Part shown: one piece after another, positions 1-5,166 of the stretch
How the letters are laid out: each line of letters starts with the position of its first letter
Numbering within the stretch: the stretch's first letter is position 1
Origin: a plasmid
DNA length: 5,166 bases
Assembly (NCBI RefSeq): GCF_055900595.2
Contig: NZ_JBVWEU010000008.1
Direction: 5' to 3' (one strand)
Made by a program: the position numbers and the translations under genes
The notes under the pieces: generated by a model
What the model saw: the letters and a program-made list of their open reading frames with translations, nothing else
Told to the model about the DNA's origin: nothing
The model's database searches: none

Positions 1-485
1 TCCAGTGTCACAACTTTCTGATACACCGCCGCTGTGGCGTTGTAGTTCCTGTCGAGTATTGTTTTCATTCCCCATCCGAGCACACAGAACATAACCAGAA
101 AAGCCACTGACACCCCACCCAGCCATTTCCAGCTATACCCTTTAAGGGTGTTGTATTCCTGCACGATATTGCTGTGAATTGTCGCAATATCCCTGTTCAG
201 GGCATCCGCGTTTGCCTTCATGTTTGCGACTGACTCTTCCAGCCGCTGAAAATCCTGGCTGATGCGCTCACCTATCAGTCCTGCCACGTCCAGCTTCTGC
301 ACCTCATTTCTGACTTCATCCCTGACCTGTTTTGCCACACCGTCAGAAATATCCCGATATCCGCGAAGAGTTTCCCTTGCCACAGCCAGAGAATCAGCAA
401 CAGCTTTCTGTTGCTCCATTGCGGTATGTTGCAGATGCTCCACCGATAACAGGAGCGTGAGTAATTTTTCTTCTGTGCTGGCCAT
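1..485 (-). CDS. mobB: MobB-like mobilization accessory protein (partial; 3' end beyond window start)
   Basis: Minus-strand ATG at 485..483 lies 2 nt after the mobA stop (TGA-AC-ATG). Frame stays open to position 1 (161 codons, MASTEEKLLTLLLSVEHLQ...). Hydrophobic segment WLGGVSVAFLVMFCVLGWG near the window edge suggests a membrane anchor. Position directly downstream of a MOBQ relaxase fits MobB. Not in the supplied ORF track because it runs off the window. Confidence 0.7.
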   Translation of the reverse strand, partial: MASTEEKLLTLLLSVEHLQHTAMEQQKAVADSLAVARETLRGYRDISDGVAKQVRDEVRNEVQKLDVAGLIGERISQDFQRLEESVANMKANADALNRDIATIHSNIVQEYNTLKGYSWKWLGGVSVAFLVMFCVLGWGMKTILDRNYNATAAVYQKVVTL

Positions 486-487
486 GT

Positions 488-1414
488 TCAGAATCCCATA
501 GAAAATCCACGTGACGGTGATTTAACCCGTTCAGGTGCAGTTCGGTTCTGTCTGCTCACTCTGTCTCTCATGTCAAAGCCATGCTCCCGCGCAACATCAT
601 GTTGCAGCCTTCTGACCAGTTCATGTTGCTTAACCGGAGTGTCCAGCCATTCCCTGATGTCATGCCCGACCGTTCGCGCCTGTTCAAGATGGCGGGAATA
701 GTCCGGTTCAGACCGTTTTTGCATGATGTCATGACGCTGGGCATCATCAAGCCGTCCGGCAGCTTCAAAACCCAGATGCACTTCGGGACGTCGTTCAATG
801 CCCTGTTCTTTCAGCGTCCGGCAGTCAATGAAGCCCCTTTCAAAGCCATGCTTTCTCATATGTTCGTTGTGCTTCACCTCCCAGCGTTTTCGCAATTCCC
901 GCAACTGCTCTTTTTGCTGAGTGAGAGTCAGGCTTCCGGAATCCTTTTTCGCACCTCCCCGCTCGGGATACCTGGCGTTATAGCGCCGGAAATACTGTTC
1001 CGGTGTACGTTCAATGCCATCATTCACACGCTGACTCATCATGATATGCGCATGAGGCTGTTCGCCGCCGTCAATGCTCGCTTTCGGATTGTGAATGGCA
1101 AAACTCCAGGCGTGCCGTTCGCCAGCTTCCTGACGTACAAAATCCTGCACCAGTTCAAGGCGCTGTTCCGGTGTCAGTTCACGGGGTAATGCAATTTCAA
1201 GTTCCCTATAGGTCGAACCGTTCGCACGTTCAAACTGGTCAGCCGCCTGCCAGAAATGGGAAGGATTATCCCTGGCCCATTCCGGCATGTTTCCGTGTGC
1301 GGAATATTCCAAATCCTGACGGTCGCGGTATTTCTCTTTGCGCTCGATGTAATCGGCGTGGTTTGCAGCCTGCCCCTTGCCACCAAATTTAACGCTGAGG
1401 TGATAGGTTGCCAC
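488..1414 (-). CDS. mobA: MOBQ-family relaxase MobA (relaxase domain only, 308 aa)
   Basis: 308-aa ORF with GTG start and GAGGG about 8 nt upstream. N-terminus MATYHLSVKF...ADYIERKEKY (catalytic Tyr region), ERANG, EIALPREL and HAHIMMSQRVNDGIER (histidine-triad motif) match my recollection of RSF1010 MobA-type relaxases. No primase-like C-terminal extension. Confidence 0.85.
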   Translation of the reverse strand: MATYHLSVKFGGKGQAANHADYIERKEKYRDRQDLEYSAHGNMPEWARDNPSHFWQAADQFERANGSTYRELEIALPRELTPEQRLELVQDFVRQEAGERHAWSFAIHNPKASIDGGEQPHAHIMMSQRVNDGIERTPEQYFRRYNARYPERGGAKKDSGSLTLTQQKEQLRELRKRWEVKHNEHMRKHGFERGFIDCRTLKEQGIERRPEVHLGFEAAGRLDDAQRHDIMQKRSEPDYSRHLEQARTVGHDIREWLDTPVKQHELVRRLQHDVAREHGFDMRDRVSRQNRTAPERVKSPSRGFSMGF

Positions 1415-2139: not shown

Positions 2140-2197
2140 CTGCTCAAAAAGACGCCAGAAAGGCGCTGTTATCTGATATAGGCTTATTTGGTCTACT
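2140..2197 (-). other. ori: ColE2-type origin of replication (Rep-binding / primer RNA site)
   Basis: Directly 3' of rep and overlapping its stop codon. The rep-sense strand reads TAGACCAAATAAGCCTATATCAGATAACAGCGCCTTTCTGGCGTCTTTTTGAGCAGC, which matches my recollection of the ColE2-P9 minimal origin (AGACCAGATAAGCC..TATCAGATAACAGCGCC..TTTGGCG). Confidence 0.6.
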
Positions 2198-3107
2198 CTA
2201 CGAGACCTCGTTTTTTCAGTTGGTAATACCAGGCGCGACTGATCCCTAATGCCTCCCACGGTTTCAGCGTGCGTGCAGATGTAGCTACTGTGCTGCGCTT
2301 AGACTTAGAACCGCCCTTGCGACCGCGTGCAGCCTGAATTTCTGGCGTGTGCGTATCAGCCACATACTGTGCGAAAGTTTCCGGCGTGAAGTTCCTGTGC
2401 GTGTATTTCGCAATGCTCTTGCCAATAGCCCGACATTCAGCCAGTGAAAGCGGAACGGGAAGCGATGCATTGTACATTTCGACACGCTGGATCACCGCTT
2501 CAAGCCACTGTGAGAACGCTGGCCAGCCCTGACGAATCGCCCTGTAAGCCCATTTGCGCGTCATTTCGAACAGGTGGCAGTTTCGCCCCATCCCGTAATG
2601 TTTATCGATGCTACGACGCTCTGAGGCGCTCAAATCGAGATAATCAGCCAGTTCATCGAGGGTATAGGCTTCCTCGCGCCACTCCATCACCAGCCATTCC
2701 AGGTGGAACGGATTTTTGCAAATCAGGCCGCTGTAGTTCACATCCGCACAAAGTTTCTCACACAGCGAACGTTCAACCGCTGCGGCATATTTCAGCGCCT
2801 TAACCGAGGCATCAGGCGCGGTTCTCACGGCGATGTTGAGTGCGTAGAGCAGGTGAGCGTGTCCGTTCACAGGATTTTTAACGGTGATGTTCGGCGCGGG
2901 AGCGTTCCGGTCGCTCCAGTCAATCGCAGCCCCCTCGCGGTCAACGTCAAAAACCAGCCAGAACTGTGCATGAGGCTGGTTCTGCTGGATATACCGTGCA
3001 AGAAGCGCGCGCCCTTTGCCGGAGATACGAAGGCCGAAAGCGAGATCATCCGTGTGATAGGGACGGTGGGGTAAATTTTCTTCGAAGTATTGAAGCGCGG
3101 CGCTCAT
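2193..3107 (-). CDS. rep: ColE2-type replication initiator Rep (primase-like, 304 aa)
   Basis: 304-aa ORF, ATG at 3107..3105 with AAGGA SD 10 nt upstream. Sequence (MSAALQYFEENLPHRPY..., FDVDREGAAIDWSDRNAPAPNITVKNPVNGHAHLLYAL, GKSIAKYTHR) matches my memory of the ColE2/ColE3 Rep family. Origin-like sequence lies immediately downstream, as in ColE2. Confidence 0.85.
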   Translation of the reverse strand: MSAALQYFEENLPHRPYHTDDLAFGLRISGKGRALLARYIQQNQPHAQFWLVFDVDREGAAIDWSDRNAPAPNITVKNPVNGHAHLLYALNIAVRTAPDASVKALKYAAAVERSLCEKLCADVNYSGLICKNPFHLEWLVMEWREEAYTLDELADYLDLSASERRSIDKHYGMGRNCHLFEMTRKWAYRAIRQGWPAFSQWLEAVIQRVEMYNASLPVPLSLAECRAIGKSIAKYTHRNFTPETFAQYVADTHTPEIQAARGRKGGSKSKRSTVATSARTLKPWEALGISRAWYYQLKKRGLVE

Positions 3108-3124
3108 GTGTTACGATTCCTTCC

Positions 3125-3203
3125 AGGTTATCGACCGACATCGCCCCTGTATTTTCGTGAAAGTCTTGGCGGATAGACACGAATTTCAGGGGCGTTTGTT
3201 TTT
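3125..3203 (+). ncRNA. Putative antisense RNA (RNAI-like) complementary to the rep mRNA leader
   Basis: Bipartite hairpin: outer stem CGCCCCTG (3142-3149) / CAGGGGCG (3187-3194), inner stem TTCGTG (3154-3159) / CACGAA (3178-3183), followed by TTTGTTTTT (3195-3203) on the + strand only. Candidate + promoter TTGAAG (3090-3095), 16-nt spacer, TGT-TACGAT (3109-3117) overlaps the rep start. The 5' end is a guess. Confidence 0.4.
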
Positions 3204-3262
3204 CAGTCGCTTACACTACCCCCAACGACAAAACCTGTCGAGCCTTCCCGCAAATCCGATCC

Positions 3263-3290
3263 ATTTACCATAACTCCCGTTGTACGTACC
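3263..3290 (-). other. cer-like XerC/XerD recombination core (multimer resolution site)
   Basis: Minus strand reads GGTACGTACAA-CGGGAG-TTATGGTAAAT. XerD arm is identical to the ColE1 cer XerD site (TTATGGTAAAT); XerC arm is 10/11 to cer GGTGCGTACAA. Central region is 6 bp. Confidence 0.65.
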
Positions 3291-3391
3291 ATGTAAAACG
3301 CCCTCAATCGCTTTCTGGCGCAAAAAACGCAAAAAGACAAGAAAACACCAGGCCAAACCAGAAAAACGCGTCAGAAACGTTTTCAGAGCGT

Positions 3392-3405
3392 TGCATAACT
3401 ATGCA
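3392..3405. promoter_or_regulatory. ARG-box-like palindrome (possible ArgR accessory site of the cer-like locus)
   Basis: TGCATA-AC-TATGCA palindrome, about 120 bp from the Xer crossover region on the XerC side, where cer carries its ArgR site. Pattern TGnAT-N4-ATnCA versus ARG-box TGAAT-N4-ATTCA. Confidence 0.3.
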
Positions 3406-3532
3406 CGAAAGCGATGTGCGATCGGTTTCGTGCGTTCTGAACACCGAACGGCTCAAAACGACAAGTTTTCTCCCCTGGTGCGTGGCGCTCTGACGGGGTT
3501 TCCTGTTTCCAAACTTCACATCTCGCCAGGAC

Positions 3533-3691: not shown

Positions 3692-3713
3692 AAAAAACCC
3701 CACAAAAGTGGGG
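3692..3713 (-). terminator. Rho-independent terminator (minus strand) at the backbone/AT-rich boundary
   Basis: Minus strand: CCCCAC-TTTT-GTGGGG followed by TTTTTT. Confidence 0.5.
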
Positions 3714-3940
3714 AACCAAGAGAAACAACAATTACAGGTTGTTGGTTGTGTTCGAACAACGATGAAGTAGCTACGCTAAATAATAATTACCGTACAGGCC
3801 CTACATATTCAACACTAAATTTAAGATCCTGACGAAGGATTTATAAATGCACGAAAACACATAGACAGACAAATTCACTAAATTCATACACAAAAACAAG
3901 TGTAGTTTTCTAAGTAAATTAGATTCGACAACCAATTAGT

Positions 3941-3949
3941 TTATCCACA
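3941..3949 (+). promoter_or_regulatory. DnaA box consensus (TTATCCACA)
   Basis: Exact 9-mer TTATCCACA inside the A/C-rich tract. Only one copy seen, so function is unproven. Confidence 0.3.
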
Positions 3950-4097
3950 TCGCATTCCACTCTTGCTACACCAATCACATTTCTTGATATGTAATAGCAG
4001 AAAAAATAAAACCAGACACCAATAGACCAAAAAACAAACATTCAACAAGAAACATTTTGAACAATATCACAAAACTGTCACAACCATCATCAGACTT

Positions 4098-4126
4098 TTG
4101 AAAAAAACTGGTTGCTGTTTTATAAA
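4098..4126 (+). promoter_or_regulatory. Candidate sigma70 promoter (TTGAAA, 17-nt spacer, TATAAA)
   Basis: -35 TTGAAA at 4098-4103, 17-nt spacer, -10 TATAAA at 4121-4126. About 105 nt upstream of the + strand terminator at 4212-4236. Confidence 0.35.
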
Positions 4127-4132
4127 AGCGAC

Positions 4133-4237
4133 TGTAACAACCTCCACTCTATAGTTCCATTAGTTTAAAGTGTCACACAAACTGAGCATCCATTTGTTTT
4201 CCTTACTTTTGCCCCTGTATTCCAAGGGGTTTTTTTA
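4133..4237 (+). ncRNA. Candidate small RNA, module 1 (promoter to terminator, about 105 nt, no ORF)
   Basis: Predicted start about 7 nt after the -10 at 4121-4126. Contains ACACAAAC, then TTTTCCTTAC (4197-4206), then terminator hairpin. No ATG in the interval. Confidence 0.3.
4212..4236 (+). terminator. Rho-independent terminator (plus strand), module 1
   Basis: CCCCT (4212-4216) / AGGGG (4225-4229) stem with 8-nt loop, followed by TTTTTTT (4230-4236). Preceded by TCCTTAC at 4200-4206. Confidence 0.5.
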
Positions 4238-4467
4238 TAACTTAAAGATTAGCACACCACACAAAAACAATAAAAAAAAACGACAAGTTATACAATAAAA
4301 CCAGTACCATCCATACAGCTAATTACATATAAATACTATTAAACCATCTGGACATTAAAAATAAACTCTTATAACATAAAATTAATGCGGTTCCGGTACC
4401 ATATGTCAGGGATAATGTGCAAATGGAGGTATCGGAACTGCATTTCAGTTCATTATTAATTAATGAC

Positions 4468-4494
4468 AAAAAAAAACCTCTGCGAGCGCAGAGG
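4468..4494 (-). terminator. Rho-independent terminator (minus strand), module 3
   Basis: Minus strand: CCTCTGC-GCTC-GCAGAGG followed by 9 T (+ strand A-run 4468-4476). Preceded on the minus strand by TCCTTAC (+ coordinates 4503..4497). Confidence 0.65.
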
Positions 4495-4526
4495 GGGTAA
4501 GGAATGTTCCCGGTCATAATATGTCG
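4468..4526 (-). ncRNA. Candidate small RNA, module 3 (about 60 nt)
   Basis: Runs from the candidate minus-strand promoter (4533-4561) to the terminator at 4468-4494. Contains ATTCCTTACCCCC immediately 5' of the hairpin. Confidence 0.3.
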
Positions 4527-4532
4527 ATAGTG

Positions 4533-4561
4533 TTTATATACATACAGAACAAGAACAACAA
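4533..4561 (-). promoter_or_regulatory. Candidate sigma70 promoter on minus strand (TTGTTG, 17-nt spacer, TATAAA)
   Basis: Minus strand -35 TTGTTG (+ 4561..4556), 17-nt spacer, -10 TATAAA (+ 4538..4533). Directs transcription toward the 4468-4494 terminator. Confidence 0.35.
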
Positions 4562-4713
4562 CCAGCCAACTAATAAATATTTTATTTTTTAGAGCTGAAA
4601 CCTTAAAGCTCACTTCCATTCCATACATTGTTATAAACCTTATGTTGAAAACTGAAAGTAAGTACGGCAGACTTATTAAGTTGCGTGCAGTCTTTTCACG
4701 TTATACAAACAAG

Positions 4714-4770
4714 AACACCTGCGAAGTTATTTCTCCTTACATATCCCCCTATGCCAACGGGGGATTTTTT
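4714..4770 (+). ncRNA. Candidate small RNA, module 2 / possible leader of the 69-aa ORF
   Basis: Weak promoter TTGCGT (4681-4686), 15-nt spacer, TATACA (4702-4707). Transcript would contain TTCTCCTTAC (4731-4740), then ATAT, then the 4743-4770 hairpin and T-run. Start is uncertain. Confidence 0.25.
4743..4770 (+). terminator. Rho-independent terminator (plus strand), module 2
   Basis: ATCCCCC (4743-4749) / GGGGGAT (4759-4765) stem with 9-nt loop, followed by T-run to 4770. Preceded by TCCTTAC at 4734-4740. Confidence 0.6.
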
Positions 4771-4842
4771 CTGGTTCACTAACGCATAAATAATAGTGAC
4801 ACCCTATCATTCACAAACCGTGATAATATAAGGATTATCATC

Positions 4843-5052: not shown

Positions 5053-5166
5053 AAAAAACGGTGAACGGTTCGCGAAATCCTTTCGCGGGTCGTGAGGCGT
5101 TGGACAAGCGAAGCGCGTCAGTTTTTCCGGCTCTTCCCCGTGACAGGTTTCTCCACCAGTTTATCT

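Follow-up and report, generated by a model that had tools for sequence, protein, structure and literature searches.

A probable ColE2-type antisense RNAI gene opposite the rep leader of a small Col156/MOBQ plasmid

Post-transcriptional repression of Rep by a small antisense RNA, RNAI, directed against the 5′ UTR of rep mRNA is described for ColE2 replicons in two papers (PMC5304414, PMC6856555), which cite Yasueda 1994, Takechi 1994 and Sugiyama & Itoh 1993 for this RNA. Among ColE2-related Pseudomonas replicons, control modules have been exchanged and occur with and without leader peptides (PMC5304414). The control region of ColIb-P9 combines a leader peptide with GGCG in the target loop and CGCC a short way upstream of rep; its antisense RNA acts by blocking the pseudoknot, and the leader peptide is repressed by it as well (PMC4705826).

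Here we analyze a stretch of 5,166 bp, called the window throughout, in which positions 3090-3203 very probably constitute the gene of a ColE2-type antisense RNAI (the incA determinant) for plasmid copy-number control, as judged from sequence comparison. A ColE2-family RNAI gene is an already known kind of element; that it is transcribed and represses Rep in the plasmid studied here we infer from homology.

Replicon type and anatomy of the rep leader

The window is a complete small ColE2-type plasmid: near-identical circular records in PLSDB span 5,162-5,168 bp, and through them the plasmid is typed as Col156/MOBQ. Its Rep protein, whose start codon is annotated identically in the related locus L001, contains the Pfam domains Replicase (PF03090, 4.7e-43) and PriCT_1 (PF08708, 1.7e-4), a pair that characterizes the ColE2-like initiators of MOBQ4_2/Col156 plasmids (PMC6856555). 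A MobA/MobL relaxase gene is present at 1414..488. The ori-like sequence listed in Table 1 resembles the ColE2-P9 ori; a ColE2-type rep and, downstream of it, a ColE2-type ori are both found beside the RNAI locus. The segment 3040-3330 is 89.9% identical to ColE7-K317 (NC_024962), which belongs to the classical, experimentally studied ColE2-related plasmids, and more than 1,100 PLSDB records match the leader of the window plasmid.

Table 1. Coordinates of features at and around the RNAI locus (window numbering)
Feature	Position	Strand	Description and basis
ColE2-type ori-like sequence	2150..2190	-	AGACCAAATAAGCCTATATCAGATAACAGCGCC, just past the rep stop codon; replicon marker, outside the RNA gene
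rep	2193..3107	-	304-aa ColE2-type initiator/primase, the gene under control; ORF list
-35 hexamer TTGAAG of the putative RNAI promoter	3090..3095	+	opposite rep codons 5-6; sequence and conservation
rep start codon AUG	3105..3107	-	ORF 2193..3107
Extended -10 TG-T-TACGAT of the putative RNAI promoter	3109..3117	+	between the rep Shine-Dalgarno and AUG of the other strand; conservation
rep Shine-Dalgarno region GGAAGGAA	3117..3124	-	directly adjoins the end of the predicted RNAI-mRNA duplex
Predicted RNAI transcript, ~79 nt	3125..3203	+	predicted ends; fold z -5.34
Bipartite hairpin	3142..3194	+	terminator stem plus target-recognition stem-loop; folding, covariance model, covariation
Loop motif CTTGGCGG	3165..3172	+	on the antisense RNA; holds UUGGCG plus the U-turn-type YUNR motifs CUUG and UUGG
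T-run TTTGTTTTT	3195..3203	+	tail of the intrinsic terminator; + strand only
Candidate rep promoter	3267..3296	-	-35 TTACAT (3296-3291), 18-nt spacer, -10 TATGGT (3272-3267)

The hairpin opposite the rep leader has a G+C-rich outer stem of 8 bp, in which CGCCCCTG (3142-3149) pairs with CAGGGGCG (3187-3194). TATT/TTT forms the internal loop, TTCGTG (3154-3159) and CACGAA (3178-3183) make up a 6-bp inner stem, and the apical region comprises 18 nt (3160-3177). On the rep mRNA loop the complement of the loop motif reads CCGCCAAG, and this mRNA loop carries no YUNR-type motif. Downstream of the mirror hairpin on the opposite strand the 3′ flank is ATGTCGGTCGA, with no T-run. Folding of the 117 nt from 3090 to 3206 yielded -38.9 kcal/mol (z -2.5), and the 72 nt ending at the T-run yielded -29.1 (z -4.1), a stability that none of 200 shuffled sequences reached.

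These observations uphold several claims of the initial annotation. It had described a bipartite hairpin with a T-run in the rep leader at 3090-3206, which is seen both in the sequence and in the folds; it had placed this structure upstream of the rep start on the opposite strand, where we measure a distance of 35-87 nt from the hairpin to the start codon (3107-3105, minus strand); and it had confined the T-run to the + strand, a bias that is kept across the variants considered below. The fold of 3125-3203, which it had named as a check, yielded -31.4 kcal/mol (z -5.34, with 0 of 200 shuffles as stable); within it, the 5′ tail (3125-3141) of the predicted RNAI is mostly unstructured. Finally, the + strand promoter that it had proposed over the rep start codon (TTGAAG, 16 nt, TGT-TACGAT) is present in the sequence, and its core is conserved.

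This putative promoter has a 16-nt spacer and extends across the rep start codon (CAT, 3105-3107). From its position, RNAI would start at 3124-3126, 7-9 nt past the -10 element, and its 3′ end would fall within the T-run. The resulting transcript would lie entirely upstream of the rep AUG (3107) and antisense to the leader; it is fully complementary to rep mRNA from -18 to -96 relative to the AUG, so that the predicted RNAI-mRNA duplex leaves the Shine-Dalgarno and the AUG uncovered. The candidate rep promoter, in which TATGGTAAAT is kept in 11 of 17 variants and the match to the consensus is weak (4+4 of 12), would give rise to a leader of ~150 nt holding the whole RNAI target.

A generic promoter and terminator scan of 2900-3500 reported nothing. 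We do not take this null result as absence, because the RNAI promoter, with 8 of 12 consensus positions, is one match below the threshold of 9 of 12 used in the promoter scan, and the apical part of the hairpin at 3142-3194 exceeds the 8-nt loop limit of the terminator scan. The window contains a single instance of the core pattern TTG-N16-TGNTANNNT, where chance would give ~0.23, and at least one match was present in 44 of 200 shuffles of the window. A lone occurrence in 5 kb is thus weak evidence by itself, and the weight of the pattern comes from its conservation.

Conservation of the hairpin and of the promoter core

Searches of PLSDB for similar DNA, together with tblastn searches using Rep as the query, supplied 27 related loci, which represent 17 distinct versions of the leader from plasmids of Escherichia, Salmonella, Enterobacter, Klebsiella, Edwardsiella, Hafnia, Yersinia and Aeromonas, and in which the identity of Rep to that of the window falls to as low as 54%. 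The locus L020, on a plasmid of 29 kb and with a Rep that is 62% identical, was excluded; its leader is of another kind and lacks both the promoter pattern and a + strand T-run. The bipartite hairpin and a T-run in antisense orientation are found in all 17 variants, the T-run being TTTGTTTTT, TTTGTTTTTT, TTCGTTTTTT or TTGTCTTTT, and the 12 variants whose folds were tested against shuffles gave z-scores of -2.0 to -4.5.

An unguided MAFFT alignment of the 17 variants returned an empty consensus structure in RNAalifold, because the stem registers slip by one position and the apical regions differ in length. A covariance model was therefore built from three ungapped window-type sequences, and its matches were aligned with Infernal. 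A first such alignment, which admitted matches up to E 10, was discarded because true matches were mixed with reverse-strand and junk matches. The model detects the hairpin in all loci of the ColE2 family that carry one, including the ColE7 and ColE2-P9-type hairpins (E 2e-11 and 7e-13, respectively). In the Infernal alignment of 11 variants, 98% of the cells are standard pairs, and 8 of the 14 stem pairs have changed on both sides, in 25 cells. For covariation the alignment scores 0.535, compared to 0.157 +/- 0.033 in shuffles, none of 500 of which reached this value, and pairing falls to 35-52% when the partners are slid. Because the model guided the sequences onto the structure, these numbers are somewhat inflated; the independent folds of single sequences agree with this alignment.

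One outer pair of the stem is U.G on the + strand in five variants, which makes it an A.C mismatch in the mRNA-sense hairpin. Together with the one-sided T-run, this indicates selection on a + strand RNA, and it bears on the possibility that the hairpin acts only in cis, as a stabilizer or translational enhancer in the rep mRNA leader, and that there is no functional + strand RNA. The minus strand does fold into a mirror hairpin of its own (-33.1 kcal/mol, z -2.7), and the leader of ColE2 rep mRNA reportedly matters for translation, a finding attributed to Nagase et al. that also speaks for a cis-acting role. An exclusive role of this kind would nevertheless leave unexplained the + strand T-run, the promoter core aimed into the hairpin and the U.G pairs that are tolerated on the + strand only, and we consider it very unlikely. 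A role of the mRNA hairpin in cis is compatible with the presence of an antisense RNAI gene, to which it is no alternative.

The promoter core is conserved as well. In all 17 variants a hexamer beginning with TTG lies exactly 16 nt before a TAnnnT hexamer, itself preceded by TGn, while the inner positions of the -10 element vary (TACGAT, TAGGAT, TAATAT, TAAGAT, TATATT, TAGACT). The invariant positions are those that matter most for recognition by sigma-70. They are constant despite a difference in the overlapping code, which consists of rep codons in the window clade and of a leader ORF in a more distant clade. In 26 of the 27 loci the core occurs once, at the homologous site and in antisense orientation, and the hairpin with its one-strand T-run recurs at the same place as the core in the same proportion (26/27).

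The conserved promoter also helps in judging whether the structure is a plain intrinsic terminator that guards against stray + strand transcription and yields no RNA with a regulatory function. It does have the build of an intrinsic terminator; however, no + strand gene ends there, the ORFs on that strand being spurious, a dedicated conserved promoter lies 30 nt upstream, and the long, bulged, covarying upper stem with its conserved loop 8-mer exceeds what termination needs. This explanation is the least probable of those that we weighed. Replicon type, homology to ColE7-K317, covariation and the promoter core all support the identity put forward in the initial annotation, namely a ColE2-type RNAI antisense to the rep leader.

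A shorter RNAI and its relation to I-complex control

The RNAI predicted for the window is 79 nt long, compared to 113 nt predicted for the leader of the ColE2-P9 type, which is represented by the loci L012, L013, L015, L016 and L018. We take L012 to be of this type in view of its ori (TGAGACCAGATAAGCCTTATCAGATAACAGCGCCC), which matches that of ColE2-P9. The difference lies in an additional hairpin of 34 nt (CCGCGCTTTCCCATCGGGAAACGCGG) that the ColE2-P9-type leader carries downstream of the promoter and ahead of the main hairpin, and that gives the longer predicted RNA two stem-loops. This insert is absent from the window, from ColE7-K317 and from most Col156 plasmids, so that an RNAI of 79 nt is to be expected here. 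The length given for ColE2 RNAI, reportedly by Takechi in 1994, is ~115 nt, and the 113-nt prediction fits this value. The initial annotation had pointed to a ColE2 RNAI of about 115 nt as the model; for the present locus this requires correction, as the 5′ stem-loop of 34 nt is missing and 79 nt are predicted. An RNA of 79 rather than ~115 nt is a length variant inside the ColE2 RNAI family and provides no ground for exclusion from it.

The sole notable Rfam match in the window is a sub-threshold one to PK-repBA (RF01089, the IncB rep leader), which extends from 3195 to 3072 on the minus strand with 26.2 bits and E 0.011, the gathering threshold of this family being 45 bits. Several distant plasmids with a ColE2-type Rep score above this threshold (L017, 53.0 bits; L025, 51.9; L014, 47.9), and six others reach 35-43 bits. 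The plasmids of this distant clade, NZ_CP083739 and NZ_CP089003 among them, come from Klebsiella, Yersinia, Hafnia, Edwardsiella and Aeromonas. In their leaders the conserved AUG opens an ORF of 16-17 aa whose stop codon overlaps the TTG or GTG start of rep, the mRNA loop is CUUGGCGG, and in eight of the nine distant-clade variants a perfect 6-7-nt complement of the loop (UGGCGG/CCGCCA(A)) follows 22-28 nt after the leader AUG. In these elements, such leaders follow the design described for the control region of ColIb-P9.

Both the sub-threshold match and the distant plasmids, with their leader ORF and their complementarity between loop and distal site, lend some support to an IncB/IncI-type switch in the window as well, in which a pseudoknot between the leader loop and the ribosome binding site would activate rep, the antisense RNA would block this pseudoknot and a leader peptide would be coupled to it. 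Against this, the window has no leader ORF, since the conserved AUG is the start codon of rep itself. No conserved complement of at least 6 nt to the mRNA loop is found near the start of rep in the window clade, where complementary 5-mers are scattered and vary from one close variant to the next. The inverted loop places GGCG on the antisense RNA, and the score is far under 45. For the window, such a switch is already largely refuted, and we rank it behind an exclusively cis-acting hairpin and ahead of a plain terminator, all three being very improbable. With 26.2 bits against the required 45, no leader ORF and no conserved partner for its loop, the window does not belong to PK-repBA.

The antisense RNAI of the window is nonetheless related to this family in several details. 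The AAGGA of the Shine-Dalgarno region is kept in all variants and aligns with the AAGGA of the PK-repBA consensus, and the N-terminus of Rep in the window clade (MSAALQYFEENLPH) is colinear with that of the distant-clade Rep after its TTG start. When the apical 18 nt of the window are compared to the distant-clade loop, 12-14 positions match in the reverse complement and 5-9 in the forward orientation, and the loop 8-mer CTTGGCGG itself appears reverse-complemented in the distant clade. Hence, GGCG/UUGGCG is located on the antisense RNA in the window and on the mRNA in the distant clade. The window clade thus looks like a simplified, loop-inverted relative of PK-repBA in which rep would occupy the place of the leader peptide.

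These relationships suggest to us that the ColE2 RNAI cassette may well be a derivative of the I-complex (IncB/IncIalpha) module that was joined to an unrelated initiator. In the classical ColE2 clade, to which the window belongs, the absence of ~43 nt with the leader ORF and the pseudoknot partner would have fused rep to the initiation site of the leader peptide. A precise inversion of the apical loop, for which recombination or template switching between the arms of the stem offers the simplest route, would have taken the U-turn motif UUGGCG off the mRNA and placed it on the antisense RNA. Of the ancestral mechanism, repression in this clade would thus retain the 'leader-peptide' arm alone. 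We found no statement of such a descent in the literature searched, the primary ColE2 papers lying outside that search. The link is a plausible extension of the work on exchanged control modules (PMC5304414) and no surprise.

Proposed mechanism and comparison with known systems

By analogy with ColE2, we propose that a constitutive sigma-70 promoter at the rep start codon fires rightward from ~3125 and that transcription would end at the hairpin and T-run (3142-3203), producing an RNAI of ~79 nt. The leader of rep mRNA would fold as the mirror-image hairpin, and the exposed loops, containing UUGGCG on RNAI and CGCCAA on the mRNA, would kiss first. Pairing would then extend along the stems, which are broken by the internal loop, and into the unpaired 5′ tail of RNAI, a process that the conserved internal loop may aid. 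The final duplex would stop immediately 5′ of the Shine-Dalgarno region GGAAGGAA, where it would hinder binding of the 30S subunit and/or remove leader structure needed for initiation, resulting in less Rep. Because the dosage of RNAI would track plasmid copy number, a negative feedback loop would be established, and plasmids sharing the loop sequence would be incompatible. The ends of the transcript, the binding pathway and the mode of the translational block are all predictions of this model.

For the window plasmid itself this assignment adds little, as it annotates the copy-number and incompatibility determinant of very common Col156/MOBQ4 plasmids of E. coli; RNAI genes are missing from the deposited annotations of the plasmids examined. 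From the exact sequence of the loop and upper stem (3154-3183) it should be possible to predict incompatibility among co-resident ColE2-type plasmids, and the length variant of 79 versus ~113 nt should be useful to those who employ ColE2 replicons as vectors. Some modest further interest attaches to the link with the I-complex and to the inversion of the loop. One antisense control module would be present on the same initiator family in a complete form that depends on a pseudoknot and in a reduced one with its loop inverted, and the two would illustrate the exchange and simplification of replication-control cassettes.

Among the antisense systems of other plasmids, ColE1 RNAI shares with the present RNA its name and its role as an antisense copy-number controller of small colicin plasmids, although its mechanism is unrelated: it blocks maturation of the RNAII primer, and no Rep protein is involved. 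CopA/CopT of R1 (IncFII) follows the same logic as that proposed here, in that a constitutive, unstable, bulged antisense RNA kisses the rep leader and blocks translation; however, R1 works via a leader peptide (tap) and RNase III, and the window has no leader ORF. Neither ColE1 RNAI (RF00106) nor CopA-like RNA (RF00042) gave an Rfam match in the window at E values up to 1.

The I-complex (IncIalpha ColIb-P9 and IncB pMU720; RF01089 and RF01087, PK-repZ) resembles the window in architecture. There, too, the antisense RNA comprises one long bulged hairpin and a terminator, its -10 element lies between the Shine-Dalgarno and the AUG of the first ORF of the mRNA, the GGCG/CGCC loop motif is common to both, and AAGGA...UAACAnAUG of the window aligns with the family consensus. 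The I-complex antisense RNA also represses the ORF that starts at the corresponding AUG (PMC4705826). Its initiator protein is unrelated to the Rep of the window, and the window differs from it in having neither a leader peptide nor a distal pseudoknot partner and in the inversion of its loop.

The RNAI (incA) genes of ColE2-P9 and of ColE2-related colicin plasmids such as ColE3-CA38 and ColE7-K317 lie, as in the window, opposite the rep 5′ leader and encode the same terminator hairpin with the loop CTTGGCGG or CTTGCCGG; their promoter likewise overlaps the rep start, and the types of Rep and ori are shared with the window. Relative to the ColE2-P9 type, the stem and apical sequences of the window differ, and a different incA specificity should follow from this.

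Leader types and the orientation of the apical loop

Nine small plasmids of the distant clade in PLSDB (L014, L017 and L021-L027) carry a rep leader of the IncB/IncI type beside a ColE2-type Rep (54-69% identity), and their hosts belong to Klebsiella, Yersinia, Hafnia, Edwardsiella and Aeromonas. The Rfam model of the IncB rep leader, PK-repBA, scores above its gathering threshold in three of them. In these distant-clade plasmids a leader ORF of 16-17 aa overlaps the TTG/GTG rep start and contains CCGCCA, the complement of the mRNA loop UGGCGG. Comparison of window 3160-3177 with the apical loops of L014, L021-L023, L026 and L027 revealed a near-exact inversion, and CAATCTTGGCGGA is common to the loops of both clades once reverse-complemented. 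Because the loop is inverted between them, the two clades bear the UUGGCG/U-turn motif on different RNAs: the antisense RNA in the classical ColE2 leaders of the window clade, the mRNA in the distant clade.

In the window, the UGGCG loop of the predicted antisense RNA, RNAI, could pair with 5′-CGCCG-3′ of the rep mRNA (5 bp, one of them G·U). We speculate that this pentanucleotide might provide a second RNAI contact at the initiation site; the same nucleotides also face constraint from coding and from the spacer of the RNAI promoter.

Truncated copies and the remainder of the plasmid

Several hundred E. coli plasmids that are conjugative, of F type and large (80-190 kb), among them that of strain RS218 (CP007150.1), harbour the window replicon in truncated form. 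In these copies the match starts at 3183, within the hairpin, and rep, mostly unannotated, is only partial. Elsewhere, the long A+T-rich stretch at window 3700-4830 holds no credible ORFs and includes three G+C-rich hairpins followed by T-runs. The gene for a hypothetical protein of 177 aa, annotated as WP_000168770 in the near-identical plasmid NZ_CP023898, crosses the window ends, which makes the window a linearized circle.

Coordinates of features in the window and in compared plasmids
Feature	Location	Strand	Remark
Distant-clade rep leaders (examples)	L017 1525-1642; L025 263-378
5′-CGCCG-3′ of rep mRNA	window 3098-3102	minus	rep codons 2-3, just past AUG
Origin-like sequence	window 2150-2190	minus	directly after rep stop codon
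34-nt hairpin	L012 1255-1300		likewise L013, L015, L016, L018
Parts matched by truncated copies	window 3183-3330 and parts of 2347-3100
Hairpin/T-run site	about 4208-4238	plus
Hairpin/T-run site	about 4468-4496
Hairpin/T-run site	about 4743-4772	plus
177-aa hypothetical gene	window 1-483 and 5114-5166	minus

Relation to ColE2-P9-type plasmids

The ColE2-type origin-like sequence of the window, AGACCAAATAAGCCTATATCAGATAACAGCGCC, differs at a few positions from that of L012, a plasmid that we take to be of ColE2-P9 type from its origin. In leaders of the ColE2-P9 type, the predicted RNAI has an additional hairpin of 34 nt (CCGCGCTTTCCCATCGGGAAACGCGG) at its 5′ end; neither the window nor the classical ColE2-related plasmid ColE7-K317 has it.
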